A DNA stretch of 64,000 nucleotides from a virus, in IMG/VR virus record IMGVR_UViG_3300021962_000047, positions 41,972-105,971 of that record. The stretch is one strand, 5' to 3'. Of this stretch, positions 12,204 to 36,420 are shown one piece after another. How positions within the stretch are numbered: the first letter of the stretch is position 1; each line of letters begins with the position of its first letter. The notes under the pieces were generated by a model that had not been told where the DNA came from, did not search any database, and worked only from the letters and a program-made list of their open reading frames with translations. The translations under genes were made by a program, and so were the position numbers.

Positions 12204-12228
12204 AATACTTTTTTTTGAGACATTATTC

Positions 12229-12245: not shown

Positions 12246-12289
12246 TTACTCTTGTACTATGATAAGTATAATAAACTATTTGTTATTCG

Positions 12290-12643: not shown

Positions 12644-12683
12644 AAATTCTGTTTCCTAATAAATAGTTTCTTAATCTAATTTA

Positions 12684-15600
12684 TTAAGAACAGTTAGAGT
12701 AGAACGTAATATTGTTAGGTGAACAACTTGTCAAAGTATATTGACTATAGTTAGTTGCTGGAGGGTCTCCAGGGTTAGATGGTGATTGTGCATAAATGTA
12801 GTTACCTTGGACATCTGCTGCGATTTCACTATAGAAAATCGTTAATGAACACGGTGCAGGTGGGTCAACCGCACCGATTTCAACACGAACCACATCACCA
12901 ACACATGCGGATATTGTAGTTGTAGTATTCGAACCACAAGGAACACCAGTTCCAAACGAATAAACCTGAACTCCATTAACTTTAATAACTCCAAGAGTTT
13001 TAATACAACAAGTAGAACCAACAATACAGCCTTGTTTAATATGTTGAACATTTATTGTACAACATTGAGTTGTTTGAGTTGGTGTAACAGTTCTGGTTGG
13101 TGTTGGAGTCCTTGTTGGAGTTCTCGTAACTGTTTGAGTTGCAGTTTTAGTTGGCGTAGGAGTTGCAGTTCTCGTAGGTGTTGCAGTTCTCGTAGGTGTT
13201 GGAGTCGGTGTTGGTGTTGTAATAACACTCGTACATGGGTAAGATTCGGTACATGTAGCACAATCATCATAAGTAATACCACCAAATCCACCTGTAAATA
13301 CAGACCAAGTTATTGGTACATCAAGTATTTTATTTAATGTGTAACAATTATTTGAAATTCCTCCTTGTTCTGAAACATACACAATTAGACCATTATTATT
13401 ACTCACATACTCACAAATACTAGTATCTTGACTACCAAAGTAATATATTTCAAATTCACCTTCGGAACAACAATTGTCCGATAAACTAAAGTAACAATAC
13501 TCAGGACTTGTTGGAGTCGGAGTTAATGTTGGTGTTTGAGTTGGTGTAGGTGTTGGTGTCGGACACGGAGCTACATCATTACAAGCTGAACAATCGACAT
13601 ATAATGTAGTCACTTTATACTCTGCGGGTTCTGGCGTTCCCACTAAGTCATAAATTGTGTAACAAATTCCGTCAATTATAACAACATACCCTTGTAATTC
13701 ACTTCCATATGCCGTTGGAACATCAACAAATTTCACAATTTCAGTTCTTCCATCACAACATTCAATCATTGTTAATTCCCATGTAGTGTATGCAACCGTT
13801 TCGGTTGGGGTATTAGTAGGTGTATTTGTTGCGGTTAATGTAGGTGTAGCTGTTGCGGTCAACGTAGGTGTTGATGTCAACGTAGGTGTGTTTGTCGATG
13901 TTAATGTTGGAGTTGAAGTCCTTGTTGGTGTATTTGTAGCTGTTAATGTTGGAGTATTTGTCGCGGTCAACGTAGGTGTTGCCGTTGCGGTTAGTGTTGG
14001 AGTCGAAGTCCTTGTTGGAGTATTTGTGGCAGTTAACGTAGGAGTTGAAGTCCTTGTTGGTGTATTTGTTGCAGTCAACGTAGGAGTTGAAGTCCTTGTT
14101 GGGGTATTTGTTGCGGTTAATGTTGGAGTATTTGTCGCGGTTAAAGTTGGAGTATTTGTTGCGGTTAAAGTAGGAGTTGAAGTTCTTGTCGGAGTATTTG
14201 TTGCGGTTAAAGTAGGTGTTGAAGTTCTTGTCGGAGTATTTGTCGCGGTTAAAGTAGGTGTTGATGTTAATGTTGGAGTATTTGTTGCAGTCAACGTAGG
14301 TGTTGATGTTAATGTTTGGGTTGGTGTAGGAGTAACTGTTCTTGTTGCCGTTAACGTAGGAGTGTTTGTCGCTGTTAGTGTAGGTGTTGATGTTAATGTT
14401 TGAGTCGGTGTAGGAGTAACTGTTCTCGTTGCAGTTAATGTAGGTGTACTGGTTGATGTAAGTGTTTGTGTTGATGTAACTGTTTGAGTTTGTGTTGGAG
14501 TAACCGTTCTCGTTGCGGTTAATGTTGGAGTACTAGTTGAAGTCAACGTAGGTGTTGAAGTCAATGTAGGTGTGCTGGTAGATGTTTGTGTTGGAGTACT
14601 TGTTAAAGTCGGTGTGTTAGTTGCAGTTAATGTTGGAGTAGATGTTAGTGTCTGAGTATTAGTAGGTGTAACCGTTCTGGTTGATGTTAATGTCGGTGTG
14701 TTAGTTGGTGTTTGAGTTGGCTGTGCAGTCAATGTAGGTGTCGCAGTTGAAGTCAATGTAGGTGTTGAAGTCAACGTAGGTGTACTTGTTGAAGTTAAAG
14801 TTGGAGTATTAGTTGCGGTTAATGTGGGAGTATTTGTTGATGTTAAAGTAGGTGTAGATGTTAATGTTTGAGTTAAAGTTGGCGTTTGTGTTGGAGTAGA
14901 TGTAACTGTTTGTGTCGGTGTCGGAGTTGGACATGTAAATGTAGTACCCGCAACTGCATCACCATCTACATCAGTTACAATATTGATTTGTGTTGGGTCA
15001 CTTATTCTTTGAATATATAGGCTTGGACCTCCGTATAATGAAATTAATTCACTATAAATGTAAGGTGTTAGATTACCATCTGAATATAATGTTTCACCTT
15101 CAATTACAGGGTGGTCATTATCATAAATTACAATAGTTGATGGTGTACCATAACATAAATCATTTAAACTATTTGATATATAATAGTTTTCAGCATTTTG
15201 AATTTGAGTTGGTGTTGGTGTAGATGTTTGAGTGCTCGTAGGGGTTGGAGTATTTGTAGAACTCAATGTCGGAGTAGAAGTTAATGATTGAGTCGGTGTT
15301 GGTGTAACTGTTCTTGTTGAGGTTAATGTAGGAGTATTAGTTGCGGTTAAAGTAGGTGTACTAGTTAAAGTAGGTGTTGAGGTCGAAGTTAAAGTAGGTG
15401 TGTTAGTTGATGTTAATGTTGGCGTATTAGTTGAAGTTAATGTTGGCGTTTGACTCTGAGTTTGTGTATTAGTTGGAGTAACAGTTCTTGTTGATGTCAA
15501 AGTAGGTGTTGACGTACTTGTCAATGTTGGAGTACTGGTCGTTGTTGGCGTTGAAGTGCTCGTCTGAGTTGGAGTATTAGTAAGTGTTTGAGTTGGAGTT

Positions 15601-16469
15601 GCAGTTAATGTTTTAGTGGCTGTTACTGTTTGAGTATTTGTTGGTGTTAAAGTTAAAGTACTTGTTAAAGTAGGTGTTGAAGTACTTGTTAGTGTTGGCG
15701 TTTGAGTTAAAGTAGGAGTTGAAGTACTTGTTAATGTTGGAGTACTTGTTAATGTAGGTGTTGAAGTACTTGTTAGAGTTGGCGTTTGAGTTAAAGTAGG
15801 TGTTGACGTACTTGTCAATGTCGGAGTACTTGTTAGAGTTGGTGTTGACGTACTTGTCAATGTTGGAGTACTCGTTAAGGTTTGAGTATTCGTTGGGGTT
15901 AAAGTGGGTGTTTGAGTTAAAGTAGGTGTTGAAGTACTTGTTAAAGTAGGAGTTGAAGTTAATGTAGGTGTAGATGTACTAGTTAAAGTTGGTGTGCTTG
16001 TTAATGTCGGTGTTGAAGTGCTTGTTAATGTTGGTGTAGATGTACTTGTTTGAGTCGGAGTATTAGTCGGAGTATTAGTAGATGTTAATGTCGGTGTCGA
16101 AGTGCTTGTTAAAGTTGGTGTTGCGGTACTCGTTTGTGTTGGAGTGTTTGACAAAGTCGGAGTACTCGTCAATGTAGGAGTTGACGTACTAGTTTGAGTA
16201 GGAGTATTTGTGAGTGTTTGAGTTAATGTTGGGGTGCTAGTTAATGTTGCAGTTAAAGTTGGTGTTGGTGGAATAATATGAATATATGTTTTATCATAAT
16301 AAGGAACATAAATTTCATAAGTACCTGTAAAATGAGGCGCAATATAATTAAAAGGCATTGTAAGCGTACCTAAATCAGATGGGTCACCACCTTCATCAGA
16401 CAAATACGTAACCTGAACTGTAAAACCACTTAGGTTTTCACTTAAAAATCTAATACCTTCTCCCGCCAT
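12684..16469 (-). CDS. Large Thr/Pro-rich (mucin-like) fibre-like protein with Cys-rich modules
   Basis: Long ([14 protein letters not shown])n tracts separating globular and Cys-rich modules; late motif upstream. Confidence 0.8.
13800..16270 (-). repeat. Degenerate 18/24-nt coding repeats encoding TPTLTS(TS)/TPTLTATN tracts, interrupted by a globular module at ~14935-15200
   Basis: Visible gtt/gta/gga/ggt periodicity with synonymous variation. Confidence 0.9.
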
Positions 16470-16531
16470 TTTTTATTTTATAATAAATATTACCTAATCT
16501 TATAATCCCATTTTATTTTTTAGTAATTTCT

Positions 16532-19500
16532 TTATATACAATAGAACCATTTATTATTTAAGTAGTTGTGTGTTACAGATAATTCTGAAGGTGTCAATAC
16601 TCTATTCCACAATAATACCTCATATATAAATCCACCGTAGTAATATCTGAATGATGATGTCCCTGTTCTATCAACACCAATATATAGTGTATCTATGGAT
16701 GCATTTGTTGATGTACCAACATTTGATAAGAATGTTAATGATTCCTGAACTCCGTCAATATAGAATTTAAGCTTGTCAGCATTTGTAGATTGTGTACCAT
16801 CAAATACCATAGTCCACATATGTGGGTTTAAATCGGCGATTTGGGATGTCTGAGCTAAACCATTTGCAGCTCCTACAACAAATGTACCACCACTTAATCT
16901 TAAGTTAGAATTGTTAGTGGATACGTTACCGATACCAGATGTGATAAATTGTTGTGTGGTACCAGTATTTACCAATTTACCTAAAACAATTGCAGTAAAC
17001 CCTGTGATAGCCGCAATAGATGTTAATGGGTTAACACTCAAGCCATCAGATGTCCCATCAAATTTAACAGCACTTAATCCACACTGTACATTGGTCCACC
17101 ACGCAGGTCTGGTTGTGGCACCTCCGATTGGGTTGGCATTATGTGCACTTGCAGATGAGTCATACCATTGAGTAAAGGTATCACCACTCACAGGTGTTGG
17201 GTTAAAGTTAGTATCTAAACTTGCGTCATAATAAATTTGTAGAGTTGGGTCTGACGGTACAACCGCCTGTGTTGCGGTTAATGTTAAAGTTGGTGTTGGT
17301 GTAAGTGTTTGAGTAATAGTAACCGTTTGTGTTAAAGTAGGTGTTGGAGTTGGAGTTAATCCGCCAAGTGTTTGTGTTGGTGGCAATGGTGTAGAAGTTA
17401 TATCATTAGTCGGAGCCGGCGTAAATGTTAATGTTTGAGTTGGTGTTAAAGTTGGAGTTGAAGTACTTGTTAATGTCGGAGAACTTGTTAAAGTTGGGGT
17501 TGAAGTACTTGTTAATGTCGGAGAACTTGTTAAAGTTGGGGTTGAAGTACTTGTTAATGTTGGTGTAGGTGTCGGTGTAGTCACAATAAATGGACTAAAA
17601 TCTACAATAACCGGACACTCACATTCTGAGGTATCCACACTAATCACACCAAATGATTGAACACATTCACCAGGTTGTAATACACCACTTAAATTAAATG
17701 TATGTACGTGGTCATTAAATGACATAGTTTCTGAACCATAGAACACAGTTCCCATATCACCACGAGCAACACCTGAAATAACATAATCACATAGAGCATT
17801 GGCATTACTTGTAAATCCACTATCGTTATATAACTTTATTGAGAAGTTAGAACATCCTCCTAATTCAACCTGAAGATATTGTGTAGTTACCGGACAACTT
17901 GGAGTATTAGTTAACGTTGGTGTATTTGTTAAGGTTGGTGTACTGGTTGAAGTTAAAGTAGGTGTTGAAGTTAAAGTAGGTGTTGACGTACTAGTTAAAG
18001 TCGGAGTAGAAGTTAAAGTAGGTGTTGATGTGCTCGTTAGTGTTGGTGTCTGAGTTAAAGTAGGTGTTGAAGTACTTGTTAATGTAGGAGTGTTAGTTAA
18101 TGTAGGTGTATTGGTTGATGTTAAAGTAGGTGTTGACGTACTAGTTAAAGTAGGTGTAGACGTACTTGTTAGTGTCGGCGTTTGAGTTAATGTCGGAGTA
18201 TTTGTAGGTGTTGGTGTAGGAGTTGGACAAATTTGGTCCACACCACAAACCGATTCACCATCAACATTATTAACTATATTAATTGTTGAACCACCAACCT
18301 TCTTAATGTAGAACGGAGTTCCACCAGCAATACTCTCTAAATCAACATACGGATATGGTGTTAATAAACTATCTTGATATAATGTTTCACCCTCAATAAC
18401 GGGATGGTCATTATCATAAATTAAAATAGTTGGATTTTCTCCATAACATAACGAATCTAAACTATCTGAAATATAATAGAAATCAGCATTTTGTACTTCA
18501 GTCGGTGTAGGTGTTGATGTTAATGTTGGCGTGTTCGTTGCAGTCAACGTCGGAGTTTGGGTCAACGTAGGAGTTGAAGTACTTGTTAAGGTTGGTGTAC
18601 TTGTAAGTGTTGGAGTATTAGTTGACGTTAATGTCGGAGTTTGAGTCAACGTTGGTGTCGAAGTACTTGTTAATGTCGGAGTTTGAGTCAGAGTCGGAGT
18701 TGAAGTACTTGTTAAAGTTGGGGTACTTGTTAATGTCGGTGTATTAGTTGAAGTTAAAGTCGGAGTACTTGTCAACGTAGGAGTTGATGTACTTGTCAAT
18801 GTTGGAGTTTGTGTTAAAGTAGGTGTAGAAGTACTTGTCAACGTAGGAGTACTTGTCAGTGTTGGTGTGTTAGTTGAAGTTAATGTAGGAGTACTGGTTA
18901 GGGTTGGGGTATTAGTTGCGGTTAAAGTAGGGCTACTTGTTAGGGTAGGCGTGGGTGTACTTGTTAAGGTAGGACTCGGTGTAGGTGTTTGAGTTGGTAT
19001 ATTAAAGATATACCTGAAAGTATAAACATAATTGTAAATTGTACTACCTGAATTAACGATACTAACATTACTAATACCACTGGTGTAATTCAATAAAGAA
19101 TAATTTGTGGTTGCACTTAATTGAGTCCCACCTGATAATGAACCCGCACCGAGTTCGATTGTAGGTTCAAACACCAATGACGAACCATTTTGTAATCCAA
19201 GAGTATTGTTAAAATTAATAACAACTGTATTATCTACAGTTCCATCCATGGTTGCCGAATATGATGCAAATACAGAACCCGCGGTGTATGTTCCAACAAT
19301 ATCAATAGTTCTAGTATTGATTAATGTTGGAGTTGGTGTTGGCGTTCTTCTTGGAGTTTCTGTTGGTCTAACAAAAGGAGTTACACCTTTATTTGGTCTA
19401 CAACACGTATCACTATCTGCGAACGATTCAATTATATTAACATATAATACATTCCTAACAGGAACAATATATTCACCTCTTTCATTAACAATTTTAAATT

Positions 19501-19762
19501 CACCAATGTATCTACCAACTTTAGATGATGTTTTTTTGTTGAATTGATAATAAACAGAATAACCTGAACCATCTTCATTGATAGTTACACCCGCAGGAAC
19601 ATTAGCTAATCTATAAATTCCTGTATCAACATCTTTAAGTGAGAATGTAACTGTAGACGCTGACAAATATTGGTCGAGCTGATGATACCCATTTCTCGAT
19701 TCATTTATTACCTCAACCATCAATTTAGGTAATGTACTATTCTGTCTTATAAAAAACTCCAT
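16532..19762 (-). CDS. Thr/Pro-rich fibre-like protein with N-terminal BppU-like and C-terminal LamG/ConA-like domain
   Basis: TPTLTS tracts; C-terminal W.D.S...A, FDGTSD, FYIDG, LYIG and I.EVLLWNRVLTPSE are typical of LamG-like lectin folds. Confidence 0.8.
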   Translation of the reverse strand: MEFFIRQNSTLPKLMVEVINESRNGYHQLDQYLSASTVTFSLKDVDTGIYRLANVPAGVTINEDGSGYSVYYQFNKKTSSKVGRYIGEFKIVNERGEYIVPVRNVLYVNIIESFADSDTCCRPNKGVTPFVRPTETPRRTPTPTPTLINTRTIDIVGTYTAGSVFASYSATMDGTVDNTVVINFNNTLGLQNGSSLVFEPTIELGAGSLSGGTQLSATTNYSLLNYTSGISNVSIVNSGSTIYNYVYTFRYIFNIPTQTPTPSPTLTSTPTPTLTSSPTLTATNTPTLTSTPTLTSTNTPTLTSTPTLTSTSTPTLTQTPTLTSTSTPTLTSTPTLTSTNTPTLTSTPTLTSTSTPTLTQTPTLTSTSTPTLTQTPTLTSTNTPTLTSTPTLTSTSTPTLTQTPTLTATNTPTLTSTPTPTEVQNADFYYISDSLDSLCYGENPTILIYDNDHPVIEGETLYQDSLLTPYPYVDLESIAGGTPFYIKKVGGSTINIVNNVDGESVCGVDQICPTPTPTPTNTPTLTQTPTLTSTSTPTLTSTSTPTLTSTNTPTLTNTPTLTSTSTPTLTQTPTLTSTSTPTLTSTPTLTSTSTPTLTSTPTLTSTSTPTLTNTPTLTNTPSCPVTTQYLQVELGGCSNFSIKLYNDSGFTSNANALCDYVISGVARGDMGTVFYGSETMSFNDHVHTFNLSGVLQPGECVQSFGVISVDTSECECPVIVDFSPFIVTTPTPTPTLTSTSTPTLTSSPTLTSTSTPTLTSSPTLTSTSTPTLTPTQTLTFTPAPTNDITSTPLPPTQTLGGLTPTPTPTLTQTVTITQTLTPTPTLTLTATQAVVPSDPTLQIYYDASLDTNFNPTPVSGDTFTQWYDSSASAHNANPIGGATTRPAWWTNVQCGLSAVKFDGTSDGLSVNPLTSIAAITGFTAIVLGKLVNTGTTQQFITSGIGNVSTNNSNLRLSGGTFVVGAANGLAQTSQIADLNPHMWTMVFDGTQSTNADKLKFYIDGVQESLTFLSNVGTSTNASIDTLYIGVDRTGTSSFRYYYGGFIYEVLLWNRVLTPSELSVTHNYLNNKWFYCI
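17270..19000 (-). repeat. Degenerate Thr/Pro coding repeats (three tracts)
   Basis: [14 protein letters not shown] repeats at ~18500-19000, ~17900-18230 and ~17270-17585. Confidence 0.85.
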
Positions 19763-19775
19763 CTACTTACTATAA

Positions 19776-22562: not shown

Positions 22563-22576
22563 TCAGGTTTTTAACT

Positions 22577-22602
22577 ATAAATACTTTCTTTGTTATATTT
22601 AT
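22577..22602. promoter_or_regulatory. Back-to-back divergent TATTTAT late motifs
   Basis: ATAAATA at 22577-22583 (minus-strand gene) and TATTTAT at 22596-22602 (plus-strand gene). Confidence 0.6.
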
Positions 22603-22610
22603 ATGAAAAA

Positions 22611-25045: not shown

Positions 25046-25097
25046 AACCCTTTTTTTATTAGTTTTTTTTGGTTATACTTAAGTTAAAACTTATAGT

Positions 25098-27597: not shown

Positions 27598-27598
27598 T

Positions 27599-27985: not shown

Positions 27986-29361
27986 TTACAATTGGGTATA
28001 GTACAAAAAAAATTGACCCGTCGTTTAAGGAATATATTACAAAATCAGTTGGGTTACCAAATGTGGAAGTTATTCCATTTGAAAATCCGGGAACACACTC
28101 ATTAACTGAAGCTTATAATATTATTTTAGAACAATCATCAAATGATATCGTGGTATTGTGTCACGATGACATTTATTTTGAGAATAACAACTGGGGTAAT
28201 AAAGTATTAAAACACTTTAAACGCAATCCTGAATATGGAATTATCGGTGTTGCCGGTTCTAAATATATGCCTCCATCAGGTAGATGGTGGGAAGTACAAA
28301 CAGAAATGTTTGGTATTGTAAATCACGAACACGAAGGTAGAAAATGGACATCAAAATATAGTGAAACTAAAAATAGTAAATTAGATGACACTATCATTGT
28401 TGATGGACTTTTTATGGTCTTAAACAAAAAGAACATTAAAACAAAATTTAATGAAGAGGTAAAAGGATTTCATTTTTATGAAATAGATTTTTGTTATAGA
28501 AACTTTTTAAATGGTGTTAAAATTGGTGTTTTTTATGATGTTAGAATTACTCATAAATCAATTGGTATGACCAATGAACAATGGGAAAATAATAGACAAC
28601 AATTCACCGAAACATTTAAAAATGATTTACCTAAAATCATTCCAACAGAATTTGATAAAAAACAAATTAAAAAGAATGAACCACTGGTTACTATTGCAAT
28701 GCCAATTTATAACTACGCAAAAAGATTGAACCATACGTTATTATCTATTTTTAATCAGGATTACACCAACTTTGAAATTATCATAGTCAACGACGGGTCA
28801 ACCGATGAGTATTGTTTAATGAAATTAAAAACATTAGAAGGTCAAGAAGGTATTAAGATAATTCATAAAGATAATGGTGGAGTATCATCAACAAGAAACC
28901 GTGCCGTTAGAGAAGGTAATGGTGAATATGTACTACCATTAGATGCTGATGATATGATATTACCAGGATACATAAAAACGGGTGTTGCGATACTAAAAAA
29001 TAATCCTAAAATAAGTCCCGTTTATTGTGATACCATCCATGTTGGTGAGATGCAAGGTTTAGAAAAAAGACCTGAATGGAGCAATGAACGACTTTTACAA
29101 GGACCATTTATCGTAAATAGCTCTTTATACACAAGAGATGCTTACAACGAGGTTGGGGGTTATGATGAAGAATTACAGGGTTGGGAAGATTATCACTTTT
29201 GGTTGAAAATGATGAAAAAAGGATATGTCGGAAAACGTATCCCTAAAGGTTTATTTATTTATTTTCATCACGAAAAAGATGGTTCAGTTTCTACGGAAGC
29301 GAATACTAATCAACAAATGTTGTATAATAAAATAATGGATAAATTATCAACATATGAATAA
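27982..29361 (+). CDS. Two-domain GT-A (GT2-like) glycosyltransferase
   Basis: N-domain has YN, CHDD, DG.F and FHFYEID; C-domain has PIYN, VNDGSTD, LDADD, GGYDE and WEDY. Confidence 0.88.
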   Translation: MITIGYSTKKIDPSFKEYITKSVGLPNVEVIPFENPGTHSLTEAYNIILEQSSNDIVVLCHDDIYFENNNWGNKVLKHFKRNPEYGIIGVAGSKYMPPSGRWWEVQTEMFGIVNHEHEGRKWTSKYSETKNSKLDDTIIVDGLFMVLNKKNIKTKFNEEVKGFHFYEIDFCYRNFLNGVKIGVFYDVRITHKSIGMTNEQWENNRQQFTETFKNDLPKIIPTEFDKKQIKKNEPLVTIAMPIYNYAKRLNHTLLSIFNQDYTNFEIIIVNDGSTDEYCLMKLKTLEGQEGIKIIHKDNGGVSSTRNRAVREGNGEYVLPLDADDMILPGYIKTGVAILKNNPKISPVYCDTIHVGEMQGLEKRPEWSNERLLQGPFIVNSSLYTRDAYNEVGGYDEELQGWEDYHFWLKMMKKGYVGKRIPKGLFIYFHHEKDGSVSTEANTNQQMLYNKIMDKLSTYE

Positions 29362-29968
29362 TATGCAAAATTATAAAATACTTGGAGTAGGACACCCTAG
29401 AACAGGAACGGGTTATACATCAAAATTATTATCTAGTTTTGGATTCTCTGTTGGTCATGAAACATTGCAAAATGATGGGATTGTGGCATGGCAAGTTATG
29501 TTATCATCTAAAGATTTTAAAAATGGAATACCGTGGGTATATCCAAAAATTGATTACGACAAAATTAATTTTGAAACTATAATATATAACACTCGAAATC
29601 CACTAAACAGTATACCATCTATTGTTTATACTGAAAATCCATCTTTGAGTGATAGAAAAACCATTGTGGATTTTTCAGAGGCATCAAACCCAGTCGAGAT
29701 GGCAATAATTTCAATTTGTACTTTTGATACTTTAATCAAAAATAAGTATAAAAACCTTATTCAATATCGTGTTGAAGACGAACAAGAAAAATTGTTCAAT
29801 TTACTGTCAAAAAAATATGAAATAAATCCCAATTATAATCTACCACCATCGAGTTATAATTCAAGAAAAAATAGAATAGGAAAAATCGATTATTCGGTAG
29901 TTAGACCAAAATTTCAAGAAATGATTAATAATTATTGTTTGGAATATGGATACCCAAAAATCTTTTAA
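29354..29968 (+). CDS. Sulfotransferase-like protein
   Basis: 5'-PSB-like loop GHPRTGT and 3'-PB-like RNPLNSIPS. Confidence 0.65.
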   Translation: MNNMQNYKILGVGHPRTGTGYTSKLLSSFGFSVGHETLQNDGIVAWQVMLSSKDFKNGIPWVYPKIDYDKINFETIIYNTRNPLNSIPSIVYTENPSLSDRKTIVDFSEASNPVEMAIISICTFDTLIKNKYKNLIQYRVEDEQEKLFNLLSKKYEINPNYNLPPSSYNSRKNRIGKIDYSVVRPKFQEMINNYCLEYGYPKIF

Positions 29969-29970
29969 TT

Positions 29971-30612
29971 ATGTTAGTTTCACACAGATATAAATTTATT
30001 TATTTAAAACCAAGAAAAGTTGCTGGGACATCTGTAGAATCATTTTTGGAAAGGTATTGTGTTAGCCCAGAATTAGAATCAACATATAAAATTAATGAAG
30101 ATACCAATTTTAAATCAGACGAGTACGGTATTATTGGTGGAAGAATGAAAGGTAAAGTTAGCGCAAAATGGTTAAACCATAAAAGTGTTCCTGAAATGAA
30201 AAGAGATTTGCCAAGTAATATATGGAATGAATATACAAAAATTTGTAATATTCGTAATCCATATGATATGACAGTTTCTTGGTTTCATTATAACCGACCT
30301 GGAAATGCGGTGAATAAAGAAATCTTTAAAAATTTTATTTTAAAAACAAATAATTTAACCACTCTCAGGTTTAATAAAAATATATGGTCAGATGGTGGCA
30401 AATTTAATTTTGAATATATTAAATTTGAAAATCTTGAGGAGGATTTAGATAATATAATGACTAAACTAAATTTACCAAAATACAACTTTGACCTACCCAA
30501 ATATAAGATTAGTCGTAGAGGTGAATGGCCACAATACTACGATACCCGTTCAAAAGACATCGTAACATCAATGTTTGAGGATGAAATTAACTTCTTTAAT
30601 TACAAATTTTAA
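29971..30612 (+). CDS. Sulfotransferase (Sulfotransfer_2 / carbohydrate sulfotransferase-like)
   Basis: FIYLKPRKVAGTS, IRNPYDMTVSWF, IKFENLEED and YY...V...F..D.F.Y.F ending. Confidence 0.82.
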   Translation: MLVSHRYKFIYLKPRKVAGTSVESFLERYCVSPELESTYKINEDTNFKSDEYGIIGGRMKGKVSAKWLNHKSVPEMKRDLPSNIWNEYTKICNIRNPYDMTVSWFHYNRPGNAVNKEIFKNFILKTNNLTTLRFNKNIWSDGGKFNFEYIKFENLEEDLDNIMTKLNLPKYNFDLPKYKISRRGEWPQYYDTRSKDIVTSMFEDEINFFNYKF

Positions 30613-30687
30613 GAAGTTAAAACATATACATTAAATCTTTAATATTCTTAAGGTTTAAACTATTATTACTATGATAATTTAAGCTTT

Positions 30688-31851
30688 ATGAAAAAACTAG
30701 GTGTAATCGGTATCGGCAAATTAGGTTTATCTTTTGCATTGTTAGCCGAAAATAAAGGATATATAGTATGGGGTTCTGATGTCGATAAAGAATATATAAA
30801 TTCTTTAAAAAATAAGACATTTAAAACTAATGAACCACATATTACCGAGTATTTAAAAAACTCAAAAAATTTTAATCCCACAATAGAGAATATAGATGTA
30901 ATTGGTAATTGTGATTTAATCTTCACATTTGTACCAACTAATTCATTACCTAACGGTGAATATGACCACAAATACATTGAAGAGGTTGTGGATGCCTTCG
31001 AGGCAATGCATTACACGGGTTGTGACATATTAGGTAAAACTTTAGTAATCGGATGTACAACCAGTCCTGGTTATGTTGATACAATTCAAGAAAGATTAGA
31101 AGAATATGGAGTAAATGTTTGTTATAACCCTGAATTCATCGCTCAAGGAGATATAATAAATGGATTAGTCAATTCTGATTTTGTCTTAATCGGAACAAAC
31201 ACCCCCAACGAAATTAAGGATTTAACCGAGGTTTATTACACAATAATGAACGATGAACCCGTCTTTAAGATAATGTCAAATACCGCAGCGGAGATTACAA
31301 AAATTGCAGTTAATTGTTATCTAACAACAAAAATATCTTTTGCCAACATGATTGGTGAAATTTGTCACAATACAGGTATCGGTGATGAGGTTGATACAGT
31401 TTTATCCGCCATCGGTACTGATAAGAGAATCGGCAATAGATACCTCAAATATGGGTTTGGATTTGGTGGTCCGTGTTTACCTCGTGATAATAGAGCCCTC
31501 GGAGCTCACGCGGAAAAAGTTGGACTTGAAGTCAATCTACCGTTATCTGTAGATAAGTTTAACTTCGAACATCACAAGTATTTGGTAAATAAATTTGTTA
31601 CCGAATATCCCGACAGAAACACAACATTTGTTTTTGACTCTATTAGTTATAAAAAAGGAGTCGATATATTAGAAGATTCACAACAACTAACACTTCTATT
31701 AACACTCCTATCTGAAGGGTATAATTGTGTGGTCTTAGAAATGGATAGTATCATAGAAAAGATTGAGACACCTCTTAAAAATGTGTGGGGAGATAGAATC
31801 ACTATGTTACCATTAAACTCTGAAGTTGAAGGTGTTAAAATAAATTTATGA
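30688..31851 (+). CDS. ugd: UDP-glucose/GDP-mannose 6-dehydrogenase
   Basis: GIGKLG Rossmann motif, YNPEFIAQG, AEITKIAVN, KISFAN and GFGGPCLPRD. Confidence 0.9.
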   Translation: MKKLGVIGIGKLGLSFALLAENKGYIVWGSDVDKEYINSLKNKTFKTNEPHITEYLKNSKNFNPTIENIDVIGNCDLIFTFVPTNSLPNGEYDHKYIEEVVDAFEAMHYTGCDILGKTLVIGCTTSPGYVDTIQERLEEYGVNVCYNPEFIAQGDIINGLVNSDFVLIGTNTPNEIKDLTEVYYTIMNDEPVFKIMSNTAAEITKIAVNCYLTTKISFANMIGEICHNTGIGDEVDTVLSAIGTDKRIGNRYLKYGFGFGGPCLPRDNRALGAHAEKVGLEVNLPLSVDKFNFEHHKYLVNKFVTEYPDRNTTFVFDSISYKKGVDILEDSQQLTLLLTLLSEGYNCVVLEMDSIIEKIETPLKNVWGDRITMLPLNSEVEGVKINL

Positions 31852-32933
31852 AAAAAGTCATAGTACTTGGTGGGGGTGGATTCATTGGTGGTCACCTAGC
31901 GAAAAGATTAAAAGATGAAGGACATGAAGTCACAATCTGTGATATCAAACCTCATGACTATTGGAATCACGAAGACATCTGTGATGAATTTATTTTTGGG
32001 GATTTAAGACACCCCGGAGTTGTTGCGGATGTTATTGATGAAAACATAGATGAGGTATATCAATTAGCCGCGGATATGGGTGGTGCTGCGTACATCTTTA
32101 CTGGTGAAAATGATGCTGATGTAATGCATAATTCAGCAATGATAAACCTAAATGTTGCTAAAGAATGTGTTAAGAAAAAAGTTAAAAAAGTATTTTATTC
32201 TTCTTCGGCCTGTATGTATCCTGAATACAATCAGATGGACCCTGATAATCCAAATTGTGAAGAATCGTCAGCTTATCCTGCAAACCCCGATTCAGAATAC
32301 GGATGGGAAAAATTATTCTCAGAGAGAATGTTTTTATCCTTCTACCGTAATTACGGTTTGGATGTAAGAATTGCACGATTTCATAACATCTTCGGTCCTA
32401 TGGGTACTTGGAAGGGTGGAAAGGAAAAAGCACCTGCAGCTATGTGTAGAAAAGTCGCCGAATCTGAATCTGAAATTGAGGTGTGGGGTGATGGTCAACA
32501 AACCAGGTCATTCCTTTATATTGACGAATGTGTGGATGCCGTTCTAAAATTTATGGATTCAGATTTTACAGGTCCTGTTAATATTGGTTCCGAAGAAATG
32601 GTAACAATAAATCAGTTAGCTCAGATGTGTATTGATATTTCAAAAAAAGACATTAAAATTAATAATATAAATGGACAAGAATTTATTGAAAAATATGGAT
32701 TTAAATGTCCGATTGGAGTCAGGGGTAGAAACTCTGACAATAAACTTTACAAAGATAAAATAGGTTGGGTAGTATCTCAGCCGCTAATTGTTGGTATGGA
32801 AAAAACATATGAATGGATAGAAAATCAAGTAAACGAAGAAAAGAAAACCTACATTTATGAAAGTCCTGATGGAGGTAAGACAGTTTACAGAAGAGAGTTT
32901 GGACAACCTCACGAAACTAGAGAATTGATTTAA
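31848..32933 (+). CDS. NAD-dependent epimerase, GDP-mannose 3,5-epimerase-like
   Basis: GGGGFIG, LAADMGG, SSACMYP, YGWEK, RFHNIFGP and EKAPAAMCRK. Confidence 0.88.
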   Translation: MKKVIVLGGGGFIGGHLAKRLKDEGHEVTICDIKPHDYWNHEDICDEFIFGDLRHPGVVADVIDENIDEVYQLAADMGGAAYIFTGENDADVMHNSAMINLNVAKECVKKKVKKVFYSSSACMYPEYNQMDPDNPNCEESSAYPANPDSEYGWEKLFSERMFLSFYRNYGLDVRIARFHNIFGPMGTWKGGKEKAPAAMCRKVAESESEIEVWGDGQQTRSFLYIDECVDAVLKFMDSDFTGPVNIGSEEMVTINQLAQMCIDISKKDIKINNINGQEFIEKYGFKCPIGVRGRNSDNKLYKDKIGWVVSQPLIVGMEKTYEWIENQVNEEKKTYIYESPDGGKTVYRREFGQPHETRELI

Positions 32934-32955
32934 AATAAACAATAACAAAATATAC

Positions 32956-33681
32956 ATGGCAAATACAAGAAGAAAACCTGAGTCAACATCAACACCACTA
33001 CCGAAAATGACTCGGAAAGACCTAATTCAAAGTGTTATCGGTAAAACACCAAGAAAGAAATTCTTATCTGAAGGACAAAGACACTACTTTGAATTATTAG
33101 AAAATAAAGAAATAACAATTTGTACAGGACCTGCAGGGGTTGGTAAATCATACATCGCAATGAATGCGGCGGTACAATTATTATTAGACCCAAATAACTC
33201 ATATGAAAAAATTATAATTGTTAGACCTGCGGTTGAAGCTGAAGAAAAACTCGGAGCATTACCAGGAAACGTTGAAGAGAAATTGGACCCTTATATTTTC
33301 CCATCATATTATCTTTTAAATAAAATAATAGGTAAAGATGCTAGAGAAAAATTAAAAGAATATGATATTATTGAAGTTTTCGCATTGGCATACATGAGAG
33401 GTATGAATATCGATAATTCAATTCTAATTTTTGAAGAAGCACAAAACTGTACACCTAAACAAATGAAACTTTTATTAACTCGAATTGGTTTTAATAGTAA
33501 GTTTTTTATCTCAGGAGACCTTGAGCAAACTGACCGTTACAAAGATAAAACACATTCAGGTTTATGGGATGCGATTGAACGATTAAAAGATTTAGATAAT
33601 ATCGGTATTTACCAATTTGATAATAAAGATATTATTAGAAATCCAATCATAACTAAAATCTTAGATAGATACGAAGAATGA
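32956..33681 (+). CDS. phoH: PhoH-like ATPase
   Basis: GPAGVGKS, RPAVE, LGALPG, YMRG, EEAQN, TRIG, GDLEQ.D and IIRN. Confidence 0.93.
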   Translation: MANTRRKPESTSTPLPKMTRKDLIQSVIGKTPRKKFLSEGQRHYFELLENKEITICTGPAGVGKSYIAMNAAVQLLLDPNNSYEKIIIVRPAVEAEEKLGALPGNVEEKLDPYIFPSYYLLNKIIGKDAREKLKEYDIIEVFALAYMRGMNIDNSILIFEEAQNCTPKQMKLLLTRIGFNSKFFISGDLEQTDRYKDKTHSGLWDAIERLKDLDNIGIYQFDNKDIIRNPIITKILDRYEE

Positions 33682-34289
33682 AAATAGCATTTGATGTAAA
33701 TGGAGTATTAAGAGACACTTTTGGTAAGGCCGAACAGGTTTACCAAAAGTTTTATATTGATGACTACATAAAAGAAGAAGGTGAAGATGATTTTGAATTT
33801 AAATTAAATTTACCAATGACTTCTTATACCCTTTCGGACCATTTTATTTTCCCAAAGGAAGAAGATTTATATGATTTTCTATATGTAGAATACCCAATGC
33901 AGATTTTTGGTCATGCTCCATCACCAAGTGGTAATACATTTAACGTACTAAACGAAATATATGAAGAATTAAGAGATGACCACGAGATAATTGTTGTGTC
34001 TGATGAAATACAAAAATCAAAACCGGCAACATTATTTTTCTTATCAAAGTATGGATGTTTAATTGAGAAGATACTTTTTTATTCTAAAATAACTGAAAAT
34101 AATATGTGGTCAGAATGTGACATTTTAATAACCGCTAATCCAAATTTATTAATGGAATATCCGGTGGATAAAATTTTAGTGAAGTTTGAAACCGAATATA
34201 ATCAAGGTATTGATTGTGATTATACCATCAAAAATCTCGAAGAGTTTAAATCTCTTTATGAACAACTTAAATTAAAAGAAAATGATTAA
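33678..34289 (+). CDS. HAD-family 5'(3')-nucleotidase-like protein
   Basis: IAFDVNGVLRD N-terminal HAD motif; C-terminal YN motif. Confidence 0.65.
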   Translation: MKIAFDVNGVLRDTFGKAEQVYQKFYIDDYIKEEGEDDFEFKLNLPMTSYTLSDHFIFPKEEDLYDFLYVEYPMQIFGHAPSPSGNTFNVLNEIYEELRDDHEIIVVSDEIQKSKPATLFFLSKYGCLIEKILFYSKITENNMWSECDILITANPNLLMEYPVDKILVKFETEYNQGIDCDYTIKNLEEFKSLYEQLKLKEND

Positions 34290-34548
34290 TATTTTTGGAA
34301 AAAATTACTTTATTGATATGAATGCTCTTGAAGAGTTTATTCAAATAAATAAAGTAACAACTACGGGTGATACTGAAAGTTTTTCGGTTATCAAGTTTGA
34401 AATGGCTAAAACCTTTATTGAGGTAATATTAACAGAAAGGGAAGAAATTGATGAAAATTTAGGCACATATAGTGTTAAAAATTTAAGTATTCCCTTTAAA
34501 ATCGCATTTAATACTTTATTAGTATATAATATTTTAAAAGAAATTTAA
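34282..34548 (+). CDS. Hypothetical protein
   Basis: Operon ORF. Confidence 0.65.
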   Translation: MINIFGKNYFIDMNALEEFIQINKVTTTGDTESFSVIKFEMAKTFIEVILTEREEIDENLGTYSVKNLSIPFKIAFNTLLVYNILKEI

Positions 34549-34550
34549 AA

Positions 34551-35615
34551 ATGGACCAAGAAACAATTAAAAAAATAGAGAAATCTATTGAAAATTTAGC
34601 TGAGAAAAAATCGAGAATCTTATTCTTAACTCAAGACACTAAAGGTAATGCCAAAGCTTCTATTAGACACATTTATGAAATGGCATTAACTTTAAAAAAC
34701 AATGGGTTTAATCCAATTATCCTTCACGAATCAAATGACTACAAAGGTGTTGCCGGATGGTTAGGCGAAGAATATATGGAAATTCCACATCAATCAATCG
34801 AATCACAAAATTTACAAATTTCACCAGAAGATTTTATTGTAGTTCCTGAATTATACGGTCACGTATTAGAACAATTATCAAATATTACTACAGGTAAAAT
34901 TATTCTTTGTCAAGCATATGACCATATGTTAGAGACATTACAGCCAGGTGCAACTTGGAGTCAATATGGTTTTGTTAAATGTATTACAACAACTGAATTA
35001 CAAAAAGAGTATGTTTCAGAAATTATGAAATCGGTTTCTTTTGATGTTATTAAACCAACAATTGCAGATGTTTTTACTAAAAAAGAAAAACCGGCAAAAC
35101 CATTTATCGCGGTACACACAAGAGACCAAAGAGATACAATGAAATTGATTAAAACTTTTTATCTAAAATTCCCACAATTTAGATGGGTTACATTTAGAGA
35201 TATGAGAGGATTAAATCAAAACGAATTCGCAGAAGCATTAAAAGAAAGTTTCGTTTCAATATGGGTAGACGATACTTCAGGTTTTGGTACATATCCATTA
35301 GAGAGTATGGCATGTGGTACACCAGTAATCGGTAAAGTACCAAACATGAAACCAGAATGGATGAATGAGAAAAACGGTATTTGGACGTATGATTTAAATG
35401 CGTTAGTAAATATTGTAGCAGAATTTACACAAAATTGGTTAGAAGATAACATCGCAGACCAATTGTATGAATCAGGATATGAAACTGCAAAAACATATCA
35501 GAATATGGAATCATTTGAAAAAGACGTTGTCTTAAAATTCACAGAATATTTGGGAATTAGACATGATAATTTCAAAGCACAATTAGATAAACTTAAATTA
35601 GAAGAGGTAAATTAA
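34551..35615 (+). CDS. GT-B fold glycosyltransferase (GT4-like)
   Basis: VVPE, LCQ and SGFGTYPLESMACGTPVIG donor-binding motif. Confidence 0.82.
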   Translation: MDQETIKKIEKSIENLAEKKSRILFLTQDTKGNAKASIRHIYEMALTLKNNGFNPIILHESNDYKGVAGWLGEEYMEIPHQSIESQNLQISPEDFIVVPELYGHVLEQLSNITTGKIILCQAYDHMLETLQPGATWSQYGFVKCITTTELQKEYVSEIMKSVSFDVIKPTIADVFTKKEKPAKPFIAVHTRDQRDTMKLIKTFYLKFPQFRWVTFRDMRGLNQNEFAEALKESFVSIWVDDTSGFGTYPLESMACGTPVIGKVPNMKPEWMNEKNGIWTYDLNALVNIVAEFTQNWLEDNIADQLYESGYETAKTYQNMESFEKDVVLKFTEYLGIRHDNFKAQLDKLKLEEVN

Positions 35616-35616
35616 A

Positions 35617-36420
35617 ATGGAAAAGTTAGACGTATCAGTAATTTTACCAGTAGAATCATCAAAACATAAAGATTTTACTGAATACTTAACAAAGGCAATA
35701 ATGTCTATAAACAATCAATCAGTTCCTGTAAACGAATTAGTATTGGTTCACTCAGGTGAAGAATCTTTACAGACCATTGTTGATGGTTTTGATTACAGTG
35801 GATTAACTATTAATATCGTAAAAAATGATGGGAAAACTGATTTTCCATCTCAAATTAATTTAGGAGTTAAAAACGCAAAATCAAAATGGATTTCTATTTT
35901 GGAATTTGATGATGAATACGCTTCTATTTGGTTTAAGAACGTTAAAGAATATATGGAATCTTATCCTGATTTTGATGGGTTCTTACCATTAGTTGTTGAT
36001 GTAGACAGTACAGGTATGTTTGTTGGTTTTACAAACGAAGCAACATTCGCAGCAAGTATGAATATGGAAATTGGTATTCTTACTAATGAACTATTATTAA
36101 ACTACCAAAACTTCCAAACCAGTGGATTGGTTGTTAAAAAATCAATTTTTGAAGATTTTGGAGGATTTAAATCATCATTTAAGTTAACTTTTGTTTATGA
36201 ATTCTTATTGAGAATGACGTACAACGCGGCTAAATTAATGACAATACCAAAGATTGGTTATAAACATATAAACCTAAGGGAGGGTTCAATTTTTTGGAAC
36301 TATAAAAACGGCTCAAACCGAATTTCTGAAGATGAAGTAAGTTTTTGGATTGAATCTGCAAAGAAAGAACATTTCTTTGCCGATGATAGGGGCATAAAAT
36401 ATGAACCAACAAATGTTTAA
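35617..36420 (+). CDS. GT-A (GT2-like) glycosyltransferase
   Basis: VSVILPV, NLGV, ILEFDD and GGFK motifs. Confidence 0.8.
   Translation: MEKLDVSVILPVESSKHKDFTEYLTKAIMSINNQSVPVNELVLVHSGEESLQTIVDGFDYSGLTINIVKNDGKTDFPSQINLGVKNAKSKWISILEFDDEYASIWFKNVKEYMESYPDFDGFLPLVVDVDSTGMFVGFTNEATFAASMNMEIGILTNELLLNYQNFQTSGLVVKKSIFEDFGGFKSSFKLTFVYEFLLRMTYNAAKLMTIPKIGYKHINLREGSIFWNYKNGSNRISEDEVSFWIESAKKEHFFADDRGIKYEPTNV

Follow-up and report, generated by a model that had tools for sequence, protein, structure and literature searches.

Threonine-repeat fibre genes and a hypervariable glycan island in an aquatic jumbo phage: a candidate phage-encoded fibre glycosylation pathway

Gram-positive serine-rich-repeat and SD-repeat adhesins carry long, low-complexity hydroxy-amino-acid repeats that are glycosylated in the cytoplasm by dedicated enzymes of the GT-B and GT-A types (GtfA/B, GalT1, and SdgA/B). 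In protists such as Dictyostelium and Trypanosoma cruzi, GT60 enzymes (PF11397) are polypeptide alpha-GlcNAc-transferases, and PF11397 also covers Gnt1, the Skp1 hydroxyproline GlcNAc-transferase. The Megavirinae (Mimivirus, Moumouvirus, and Megavirus) and the chloroviruses encode their own sugar-nucleotide pathways and glycosyltransferases, and in the Megavirinae there are gene clusters for fibril glycosylation. Among phages, virion O-glycosylation has been described for the mycobacteriophages Che8, Corndog, and Myrna (Freeman et al. 2023, Cell Host Microbe 31:1216; as cited in PMC12619734). There, C-terminal extensions of the capsid and tail-tube subunits are reported to carry demonstrated glycans, and the proposed mechanism is that soluble enzymes encoded by the phage modify its own structural proteins within the cytoplasm, as we propose here for another family.

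The stretch of DNA analyzed (the window; 64,000 nucleotides) comes from a 106-kb contig that is 34% complete, or about a third of an uncultured ~300-kb jumbo phage with a T4-like capsid, and it was compared with more than 200 related loci from what is an abundant aquatic phage family. The family is probably that of the “moraphages,” an assignment made by matching traits rather than by sequence alignment to the known lineage. Moraphages are aquatic jumbo phages with predicted Bacteroidota hosts and genomes of 200 to 307 kb; four of their core orthogroups carry a glycosyltransferase annotation without an assigned role (Perez-Hernandez et al. 2025, PMC12619734). They share with the window family the aquatic habitat, a family B polymerase, and kinship to the huge phages of Al-Shayeb et al.; in agreement with this, the window family includes a 297-kb relative, has four core glycosyltransferases, and finds its best capsid and GT-B matches in huge phages (LR7565xx). 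Thr-repeat fibres, GT60, and the variable islands do not feature in the moraphage paper.

Unlike the mycobacteriophages, the window family has giant (Thr-x)n stalks as candidate acceptors and a GT60-like candidate initiator, along with two hypervariable tailoring islands and sulfotransferases. The phage GT60-like gene adjoins genes for Thr/Pro-repeat proteins, which recalls the acceptors of the protist enzymes, but it is bacteriophage encoded and is found in relatives rather than on the window contig. As in the Megavirinae, gene content differs between clades and surface fibrils are the proposed target, although those are giant viruses of eukaryotes; here the system belongs to a jumbo phage, and the variation is that of a compact island between conserved flanks. 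Links to the adhesin systems consist of a match between a bi-domain GT-A and GalT1 (1.5e-16) and a weak match between a GT-B enzyme (GT-B 2) and SdgA (2.6e-4), both reflecting generic GT2/GT4 likeness far under family cut-offs; unlike the adhesins, the window proteins are viral and have no accessory Sec export system.

Fibre-type genes with (Thr-x)n tracts

The fibre locus of the window contains the following genes.
12290-12643, minus strand: orf117, the adaptor domain found at the N terminus of protein 2, here as a separate gene
12684-16469, minus strand: fibre-type protein 1, 1261 aa
16532-19762, minus strand: fibre-type protein 2, 1076 aa
19776-22562, minus strand: fibre-type protein 3, 928 aa

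The preliminary description had recognized three fibre-like genes with late motifs, and this holds: the three are co-oriented, genes 1 and 3 are each preceded by the late-type motif TATTTAT at a distance of ~20 nt (at -20 for protein 1), and gene 2 starts 13 nt past gene 3. The motif precedes 16 of 52 genes, including many structural genes and orf117 (at -22), which is kept beside PolB across the family, and it does not occur anywhere in the 22590-37172 block. The three genes are predicted to encode late, modular fibre-type proteins that would be part of the virion.

Protein 1 has a 63-aa N terminus followed by giant (Thr-x)n tracts at residues 64-424 and 505-897, separated by an 80-aa module common to proteins 1 and 2, and ends with 6-Cys beads and a Cys-rich C terminus. 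Protein 2 consists of an orf117-like N-terminal adaptor (a likeness read by eye), (Thr-x)n tracts, small globular beads, and a C-terminal head (residues 835-1076) that resembles Laminin_G_3 (ESM Atlas feature scores of 0.97-0.98 against Laminin_G_3 clusters) and may be lectin-like; it has 29.5% identity to a Gordonia phage minor tail protein. Protein 3, for which the AlphaFold2 model has a pLDDT of 30, combines an N-terminal domain of 640-700 aa that is core to the family (38 related loci) with a 67-aa Thr/Pro linker and two 6-Cys beads. Homologous Thr-x giants adjoin the tail module in two relatives (G003 and G004). Collagen-like Gly-x-y giants serve relatives as fibres, and the fibre module is variable across the family in general.

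The Thr/Pro tracts total 848, 437, and 67 residues in proteins 1, 2, and 3, respectively, and no other ORF of the 106-kb contig has tracts of this kind. The long Thr/Pro/Ser repeats and the shorter linker of protein 3 had been noted before; what that reading missed is that the long tracts are a strict (Thr-x)n alternation, beyond mere richness in Thr, Pro, and Ser. In protein 1, unbroken (Thr-x)n runs hold 784 residues, the longest run being 308, and 340 of the 361 residues at 64-424 fall within such runs, whereas in composition-preserving shuffles the figure averages 52 and reaches 132 at most.

Classical mucin domains are irregular in composition and differ in this from the strict dipeptide period seen here, in which Leu recurs every 6-8 residues. 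Such a period would fit tracts that are unglycosylated and act as structural spacers or as beta-structured or trimeric shaft repeats, exchangeable with the collagen-like shafts of relatives, in which case GT60 (see below) would lie nearby merely because both belong to one plastic fibre module; the Gly-x-y giants and the general variability of the module point the same way. The gene neighborhoods described next argue against this, and we consider it improbable.

A GT60-like enzyme behind the fibre genes of relatives

Relatives of the window phage carry a soluble GT60-like polypeptide GlcNAc-transferase (PF11397, 4e-68; 231 bits, cut-off 21). The protein is near full length for PF11397 and has a DxH-type motif (IDSH), and sequence comparison with solved structures gave no matches. 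The gene is present in all three genomes of the sublineage that are at least 60% complete and has 531 relatives in viral contigs. On the window contig, tblastn and Pfam searches for it were both negative, and the window's fibre locus is without the GT60 cassette. The corresponding locus in one sublineage, from the TP3-like gene to PolB, is orthologous to the window fibre locus at 9411-22562, and the gene order TP3-like, Thr-x fibre, GT60, tailoring genes, orf117, PolB is found in 47-51 of 80 loci.

Of 49 distinct cases, 31 have a Thr-x-rich gene directly upstream of GT60 and on its strand, with a gap of 40-130 nt between the two genes; among the remaining ORFs of these loci, 57 of 490 are Thr-x-rich (12%; odds ratio, 13). 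Paralogues of window protein 3 occupy the position directly upstream of GT60 in six distinct loci. Both this adjacency and the known acceptors of GT60 enzymes, which modify Thr within Thr-rich repeats or the hydroxyproline of Skp1, speak against unmodified tracts. In 23 other viral loci with (Thr-x)16 genes, glycosyltransferase content is modest and GT60 accounts for 2 of 150 neighboring ORFs, which counts against fibre glycosylation.

The genes behind GT60 are variable and encode GT25, GT10, GT11, a PLOD-type glycosyltransferase, FkbM and CmcI methyltransferases, and a carbamoyltransferase. In one case (L319), a homologue of window sulfotransferase 1 lies 2.8 kb behind GT60.

A second glycan locus with a hypervariable island

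The plus-strand cluster of the window contains the following genes.
25098-26306, plus strand: GT-B glycosyltransferase 1 (phrog_7162, 4e-47; Pfam weak, below gathering score)
27572-27985, plus strand: small HAD-superfamily phosphatase (LNS2/HAD IIIB/PNKP-HAD matches, best 2.5e-8)
27934-29361, plus strand: bi-domain GT-A (Glyco_tranf_2_5 + GT2), core, left border of the variable island
29354-32933, plus strand: variable glycan island, this phage's allele, between the bi-domain GT-A and PhoH
29354-29968, plus strand: sulfotransferase-fold protein 1, 204 aa (ESM Atlas feature scores of 0.93-0.98)
29971-30612, plus strand: sulfotransferase 2 (Sulfotransfer_1 and Sulfotransfer_2, 23.3 bits; cut-off 22)
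30688-31851, plus strand: NDP-sugar 6-dehydrogenase, UDP-glucose-dehydrogenase-like (TIGR03026, 215.7 bits against 189.8)
31848-32933, plus strand: GDP-mannose 3,5-epimerase homologue (Arabidopsis GME, PDB 2c59, 7e-95, residues 3-333)
34551-35615, plus strand: GT-B glycosyltransferase 2 (GT1 Pfam weak, below gathering score; PDB 8xsg, 8e-7)
35617-36420, plus strand: GT2 (GT-A) glycosyltransferase (Glycos_transf_2, 6e-8)

The preliminary description had presented this region as a co-oriented glycosylation and sulfation cluster. Its four glycosyltransferases (two GT-B and two GT-A, one bi-domain), its epimerase-like enzyme, and its two sulfotransferases were recovered. The supposed UDP-glucose dehydrogenase is of that type (best PDB matches are UDP-glucose dehydrogenases at 1e-34 to 1e-28, with GDP-mannose dehydrogenase at 1e-21), but the family match does not fix its substrate; of the HAD phosphatases, one has family support, and it occurs in some relatives only. 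The region is not purely a glycan operon, since a PolB-exo-like exonuclease, a dUTPase, and PhoH are interleaved with the glycan genes.

The exonuclease, dUTPase, and HAD phosphatase flank GT-B 1, which, with PhoH also in the cluster, could suggest that the glycosyltransferases hypermodify the phage's DNA, adding sugars to modified bases as happens in T4, RB69/DLP3, and TET-associated systems, with the island supplying diverse nucleotide sugars. Known clusters for DNA arabinosylation likewise pair GT-B enzymes with a HAD phosphatase and sugar-nucleotide genes (PMC13326640), and one of the genes behind GT60 has a weak TAGT-family match (3e-5). However, there is no ThyA homologue, dCTPase, or nucleotide kinase beside the glycosyltransferases. 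A 99%-complete relative (G003) has a single, canonical-looking thymidylate-synthase homologue (Asn in PFNIASY; PF00303, 4e-97), and it showed no route to glycosylated DNA by way of hydroxymethyl- or hydroxy-pyrimidines. Five genomes gave zero Tet/JBP matches in a search whose control was uninformative, and enzymes of the sulfotransferase, fucosyltransferase, and GT25 families are not known to act on DNA. Such a role is thus very unlikely in our judgment.

The four glycosyltransferases are core genes of the family, with or without Thr/Pro giants at the adjacent locus. GT-B 1, which has more than 8000 metagenomic homologues, is found in nearly all related loci, and GT-B 2 and the adjoining GT2 are conserved in all PhoH-side loci. 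Homologues of GT-B 1 also occur in Phapecoctavirus, Campylobacter, and Streptomyces phages, which indicates that these enzymes are not specific to Thr-x fibres. The sulfotransferases of the window, by contrast, are absent from every other sampled island.

The island between these core genes measures 0.1-9 kb in relatives, and across 28 islands the sugar-nucleotide and tailoring enzymes fall into 93 protein clusters, with O-antigen-like content (DegT, GDP-mannose dehydratase, RmlD, FkbM, acetyltransferases, and GT11). The sulfotransferase-dehydrogenase-epimerase block is one allele of it. Sulfotransferase 1 has no Pfam match but a structural TM of 0.70-0.76 to sulfotransferase clusters (ESM Atlas) and, by eye, a PSB-loop-like HPRTGTG and an RNPxxS motif. 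Sulfotransferase 2, for which no relatives were found in viral contigs, has the motifs PRKVAGTS and RNPYD; its ORF opens at TTG 29935, and ATG 29971 is the likelier start. No PAPS-synthesis gene is present on the contig, a point against the pathway proposed below. The epimerase homologue would be expected to yield GDP-L-galactose or GDP-L-gulose.

This O-antigen-like content could also mean that the cluster does not act on the fibres. During infection it would instead alter a glycan of the host envelope (LPS, capsule, or EPS) or build a sulfated polymer of its own that resembles a glycosaminoglycan, feeding host lipid-carrier and export machinery, much as in cyanomyovirus LPS-gene clusters or chlorovirus hyaluronan synthesis; any fibre glycosylation would then be due to the separate GT60 cassette alone. 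The best solved relative of the bi-domain GT-A is the A2 domain of the chondroitin polymerase K4CP (2e-24), ahead of GalT1, and it also matches heparosan synthase; a hexose 6-dehydrogenase and sulfotransferases adjoin it. The core status of the glycosyltransferases and the position of the cluster, without the late motif and among early-type genes that include nucleotide-metabolism genes, fit as well and count against a role in fibre modification. On the other hand, the glycan machinery is entirely soluble: neither the cluster nor 191 island ORFs include multi-pass membrane proteins, a flippase, a polymerase, an initiating phosphoglycosyl transferase, or an ABC exporter, and export or lipid-carrier genes were not found. 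Furthermore, the bi-domain GT-A is kept in relatives without the dehydrogenase, and FkbM, GT11, carbamoyl/acetyl transferases, and the single sulfotransferase 1 homologue occur in the GT60 cassette as well. These common tailoring families suggest one shared glycan economy, and we regard action on a host or separate glycan as rather unlikely.

A proposed pathway for fibre glycosylation

The position of GT60 directly behind Thr-x fibre genes in relatives suggests that the phage probably sugar-coats its own fibres. The (Thr-x)n stalks would be the likely acceptors of a phage-encoded, wholly cytoplasmic O-glycosylation pathway, in which the soluble GT60-like enzyme seen in relatives may start the glycan and further transferases may then extend and tailor it. 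That the phage glycosylates its Thr-repeat fibres, as proposed in the preliminary description, is thus supported in part, by the GT60 genes of relatives and the soluble machinery, although the contig itself has no GT60; that description was likewise confirmed in part where it reported what the sequence contains. Its further suggestion, adsorption through mimicry of the glycans that SusC/D-type systems bind, is a speculative one.

The plus-strand cluster would be the family's second glycan locus, with four core soluble glycosyltransferases around an island for sugar supply and tailoring. Because these glycosyltransferases are core regardless of Thr/Pro giants, we infer rather than observe their link to the fibres: the cluster may act on the same acceptors as GT60, with Thr as the presumed glycosylated residue. 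The allele in this phage would contribute two sulfotransferases that depend on PAPS, together with an NDP-hexuronate and either GDP-L-galactose or GDP-L-gulose, and, as read from these enzyme families, the product could be a sulfated, uronic-acid-containing O-glycan. We give an even chance to this explanation as a whole, that is, fibre stalks sugar-coated by a soluble phage-encoded pathway with the window cluster as a second glycan locus, whose island is hypervariable in the manner of a surface-glycan locus.

Fibre-type proteins with alternating threonine tracts

Three neighboring ORFs are the only ones on the window's contig with Thr/Pro tracts, and each carries the long, tandem, Thr/Ser/Pro-rich stretch that characterizes a mucin-like domain. 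They adjoin a small ORF, orf117:

12290-12643, minus strand: orf117, a separate copy of the first ~112 residues of protein 2
12684-16469, minus strand: protein 1, fibre-type, tract of 848 residues
16532-19762, minus strand: protein 2, fibre-type, tract of 437 residues
19776-22562, minus strand: protein 3, fibre-type, tract of 67 residues

In contrast to classical mucins, the tracts strictly alternate as (Thr-x)n, with Thr at every second residue; in protein 1, x is Pro (29%), Leu (19%), or Ser (19%). Unbroken runs reach 308 residues, far above composition-preserving shuffles. The tracts are more regular than the preliminary description had reported. The N terminus of protein 2 resembles the free-standing orf117 domain (compared by eye), which is kept beside PolB in nearly all relatives and may serve fibres as a borrowed adaptor or attachment domain. 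The C-terminal head of protein 2 groups with phage Laminin_G_3 lectin-type domains (ESM Atlas features, 0.97-0.98), has 29.5% identity to a Gordonia phage minor tail protein, and had only one homologue among the family loci searched. The AlphaFold2 model of protein 3, built from a 20-sequence alignment, has a pLDDT of 30, and its N-domain gave no tblastn match among GenBank phages.

The motif TATTTAT lies ~20 nt upstream of 16 of the 52 window genes, including those for proteins 1 and 3, orf117, and many structural proteins, and precedes none of the 20 genes in 22590-37172. Half of the window's copies of TATTTAT(A/T), the reverse complement of the T4 late box TATAAATA, sit at this fixed distance (for example, at 12664, 22583, 52561, and 54556), making the motif a candidate for the family's late promoter. 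Given its position ahead of these genes, the earlier wording "late-motif fibre-like genes" is fair, with membership in the virion as a prediction.

The window covers bases 41972-105971 of its contig, an IMG/VR virus record of 105,971 bp that is 34% complete (CheckV). The major capsid protein is T4-type, and the nearest capsids are those of Microcystis phage Mel-JY01, Flavobacterium phage immuto, and huge uncultured phages. It is encoded at 48346-50175 (minus strand; 609 amino acids [aa]) and matches Gp23 in two pieces (profile positions 3-60 and 98-356, the second at residues 330-594), which implies that ~270 residues are inserted close to the N-terminal part; the insertion may be a surface or decoration domain. 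A 1,079-aa protein with M23 peptidase and PG_binding_1 domains (43879-47118, minus strand) is probably a virion-borne cell-wall hydrolase; the best-matching ORF in G003, a 99%-complete relative of 297 kb, has only 546 aa. The fibre module of G003 includes a protein (84884-86269, minus strand; L129:4884-6269) with a SprB repeat (3.5e-11). This domain is found in gliding-motility adhesins of Bacteroidota, and its presence is consistent with a Bacteroidota host.

GenBank phages gave no nucleotide match, and megablast of the glycan gene cluster was likewise negative. Protein 3's N-domain was found in 38 related loci and the window's PhoH in >600, and the first GT-B glycosyltransferase of the cluster (GT-B 1) has >8,000 metagenomic homologues, on contigs of up to ~305 kb. 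Compared by description, this profile fits that of the moraphages, aquatic phages of 200 to 307 kb with predicted Bacteroidota hosts, in which four core orthogroups are glycosyltransferases with no role given (PMC12619734).

A GT60-type gene behind Thr-x fibre genes

Viral contigs were scanned for DNA encoding (Thr-x)16, and 150 neighboring ORFs were tallied at 23 loci judged to be extra-family, defined as those with fewer than three family protein matches whose contig was not already known to belong to the family. There was no broad enrichment of glycosyltransferases around these genes at the 23 loci. The top Pfam family among the 150 ORFs was PF11397 ("GlcNAc"), the polypeptide GlcNAc-transferases of GT60, which attach GlcNAc to Thr or hydroxyproline of a polypeptide. 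A PF11397 gene is present in G002, G003, and G004, which are all of the window-sublineage genomes at least 60% complete; the match (about 1e-57; on protein, 4e-68 and 231 bits versus 21) covers profile positions 2-43 and 96-350 of 352. Pfam searches did not find it in the two smaller fragments, including the window's contig, where tblastn also gave no GT60 match at E<=1. An IDSH (DxH-type) motif is present in the GT60-like protein, which is soluble.

G003 and G004 share a minus-strand arrangement: GT60 (102103-103371 in G003), a carbamoyltransferase, a 292-aa gene, an FkbM/HtrL protein, and a Thr-x giant of 2,499 or 3,120 aa. In G002, the GT60-like gene is flanked by a collagen-like fibre gene and one for a Thr/Pro-plus-Cys protein. 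Viral contigs contain 531 relatives of the gene. Of 49 distinct cases among the best 80 of these loci, 31 have a Thr-x-rich same-strand gene ending 40 to 130 nt upstream of GT60, against 57 of 490 other ORFs in the same loci and 1 to 3% genome-wide (odds ratio of 13, Fisher 3e-15, with kinship ignored). Six of the upstream genes in these 80 loci are protein 3 paralogues (42 to 49% identity over ~640 aa). Furthermore, orf117 and PolB homologues follow 3 to 7 kb downstream of GT60 in 47 to 51 of the 80, indicating that in that sublineage the cassette occupies the locus orthologous to window positions 9411-22562. Between GT60 and orf117 lies a second hypervariable tailoring island (island B), which contains GT25 (15/107), FkbM (9), HtrL_YibB (8), GT10 (7), and CmcI-type O-methyltransferase (5) genes, along with GT11, a PLOD-type glycosyltransferase, and a carbamoyltransferase.

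A six-cysteine module of ~75 aa (CC...C...CxxC...C) recurs in proteins 1 and 3 (window areas 13000-16000 and 17400-19000 and the protein C termini), in a truncated ORF in the first 1.3 kb of the contig, and in many of the proteins encoded upstream of GT60. It usually adjoins Thr/Pro linkers. Such disulfide-rich beads suggest exposure outside the cell.

Genes for 2OG-Fe(II) oxygenases (PF13640) were found in three relatives: G001 (32114-32395), G003 (26916-27191, 79570-79788, and 272129-272440), and G004 (47588-47803). None adjoins GT60, and so they are uninformative about it. If any of them is a prolyl hydroxylase, Pro rather than Thr of the tracts could carry the glycan; in the Skp1 pathway, the glycan is attached via hydroxylated Pro.

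The glycan gene cluster and its variable island

The plus-strand cluster was annotated by Pfam, PHROG, NCBIfam, PDB-sequence, and ESM Atlas searches. The inventory in the preliminary description stands for four glycosyltransferases, a dehydrogenase, an epimerase, and two sulfotransferase-fold proteins; of its HAD phosphatases, only one is supported. Both GT-B genes are weak in Pfam, and an exonuclease, a dUTPase, and PhoH are also within the cluster. No cluster protein has a membrane-spanning segment in a hydropathy scan, which makes the four glycosyltransferases soluble, phage-encoded enzymes, as in virion glycosylation systems of the mycobacteriophage type. The features with coordinates in and next to the cluster are as follows:

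22590-23351, plus strand: 253-aa protein with an N-terminal DUF3721 (1.3e-11)
29354-29968, plus strand: sulfotransferase 1 (lead); no Pfam match; TM 0.70-0.76 to Sulfotransfer_3 and Sulfotransfer_1 clusters (ESM Atlas)
29971-30612, plus strand: putative sulfotransferase 2; Sulfotransfer_1 and Sulfotransfer_2, 23.3 bits versus 22; PRKVAGTS and RNPYD motifs
33678-34289, plus strand: core 203-aa protein adjoining PhoH

The profile match of sulfotransferase 2, with its 5'-PSB and 3'-PB motifs, predicts a member of the PAPS-dependent family; sulfotransferase 1 falls short of full membership and is a lead. The latter has one homologue (1.6e-28) among island B genes, and no relatives of the former were found in viral contigs. 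No gene for PAPS synthesis (APS kinase) was found on the window's contig. Judged by its sequence, the epimerase is a clear GDP-mannose 3,5-epimerase homologue over its full length (7e-95 to 2c59, residues 3-333; next family, 1e-25). The dehydrogenase belongs to the NDP-sugar dehydrogenase subfamily (TIGR03026, 215.7 versus a cutoff of 189.8), and equivalog models are far under their cutoffs. UDP-glucose dehydrogenases are its best PDB matches, GDP-mannose dehydrogenase also matches at 1e-21, and its C-terminal domain has no Pfam match.

The bi-domain GT-A protein has two GT-A domains and matches K4CP, a class II (K4CP/PmHAS-type) glycosaminoglycan synthase, at 2e-24, with the best stretch on the A2 domain; in this class, the two domains add hexuronate and hexosamine by turns. 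The solved K4CP chains have 624 to 625 aa, versus 475 aa here, and the gene is kept in relatives without the dehydrogenase; a K4CP-like synthase is a possible reading. In G003, its homologue (190136-192610; L134) has 824 aa and is fused to extra sequence. The 203-aa protein beside PhoH had no Pfam or PHROG match and begins MKIAFDVNGVL, which resembles HAD motif I with Asn replacing the second Asp; it may be the second "HAD" of the preliminary description or a degenerate HAD.

The family has a conserved gene order: PolB, orf117, zero to two Thr/Pro giants, a protein 3 homologue, and, further on, GT-B 1, the exonuclease, the dUTPase, (HAD), the bi-domain GT-A, a variable island of 0.1 to 9 kb (island A), PhoH, two small genes, GT-B 2, and GT2. 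All four of the window's glycosyltransferases are core in the family. Island A is hypervariable, with 191 ORFs in 93 clusters across 28 islands. Its Pfam families (GT2, DegT aminotransferases, GDP-mannose dehydratase, RmlD, GT11, UDP-GlcNAc 2-epimerase, FkbM and TylF methyltransferases, and hexapeptide and GNAT acetyltransferases) are those of surface-glycan loci. Identity as an O-antigen or capsule (Wzx/Wzy or ABC) locus is not supported: the hydropathy scan found no multi-pass membrane proteins in the window's cluster or among the 191 island ORFs; flippases, polymerases, exporters, and initiating phosphoglycosyl transferases are also absent from the 25 most frequent of 67 island Pfam families. 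The window's own allele consists of sulfotransferases 1 and 2, the dehydrogenase, and the epimerase. The last two recur in a subset of relatives, and none of the other islands sampled contains the sulfotransferases.

Thr/Pro giants are an accessory feature of the PolB locus. Islands are found both with and without them, and one giant-bearing contig (L016/L100) has no island. Whole-genome scans showed that genomes "negative" at this locus carry Thr-x or collagen-like fibres elsewhere; in three relatives, Thr-x and/or collagen-like giants lie away from PolB, and G003 encodes six Thr-x proteins at three loci, one of them (2,499 aa) beside the tail module. Because giants occur elsewhere in such genomes, the co-occurrence of T/P-rich fibres with island content, which had been proposed as a check, does not discriminate at the level of the PolB locus.

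The collagen-like Gly-x-y giants give the family a second type of repetitive fibre rich in Thr/Ser (G003, 30629-43677; G002, 28662-38252 and 169108-172569; loci L126-L127, L150, and L157). Three in G003 have 1,300 to 1,600 aa, and one in G002 has 3,196 aa, of which 2,820 are in GTS/GSS/GTN triplets.

Proposed acceptors of the glycan and a possible glycocalyx

Overall, the linkage of GT60 to Thr-x genes and the family synteny make fibre glycosylation the best-supported explanation for this phage family, and we consider it probable. That the window's plus-strand cluster works on the same acceptors is a weaker claim, possible but slightly short of even. The machinery is soluble, the hypervariability of the island suggests an exposed glycan, and tailoring families are common to islands A and B. 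Against this, the cluster has an early-type gene context, its genes are core whatever fibres adjoin, GT-B 1 has homologues in unrelated phages, and the contig lacks the initiating gene.

The glycosyltransferases could instead modify phage DNA bases, as do systems of the T4 or RB69/DLP3 type. In known DNA-arabinosylation clusters, a ThyA homologue, a dCTPase, and a kinase adjoin glycosyltransferases (PMC13326640). In G003, the 99%-complete relative of the incomplete window contig, no such set with an hm-/ho-pyrimidine ThyA homologue accompanies them: the single thymidylate synthase looks canonical and is far from the glycosyltransferases, and there is no Tet/JBP match, in a search whose control was uninformative. 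The window's dUTPase belongs to the trimeric dUTPase family PF00692 and not to a recognized dCTPase family. DNA modification is therefore unlikely.

The finding would belong to a known kind, virus-encoded virion glycosylation, for which experimental proof is, to our knowledge, confined to a few mycobacteriophages and to giant viruses of eukaryotes. A literature search returned no paper linking GT60 or mucin-like fibres with phages. The fullest reading, which is tentative and on balance rather unlikely, is a true viral glycocalyx of abundant aquatic jumbo phages. Giant (Thr-x)n fibres, of up to 3,120 aa in relatives, would be O-glycosylated in the cytoplasm; a GT60-type initiator would start the glycan, and enzymes of the two hypervariable, O-antigen-like islands would elaborate it into a lineage-specific glycan serotype. 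From the enzyme families, we infer that the glycan might be sulfated and contain uronic acid or L-sugars; in the window phage, it would carry sulfate, L-galactose or L-gulose, and uronic acid. Adsorption or protection would then be set by the glycan coat and not by protein tips alone. The earlier proposal of SusC/D glycan mimicry is pure speculation.

If the fibres are glycosylated, very abundant freshwater and estuarine phages would have mucin-like, serotype-variable glycan coats, and a protist-type mucin initiator (GT60) would be placed in bacteriophages. Such coats would matter for adsorption, for resistance to proteases and grazing, and for the interpretation of "auxiliary" phage sugar genes in metagenomes.
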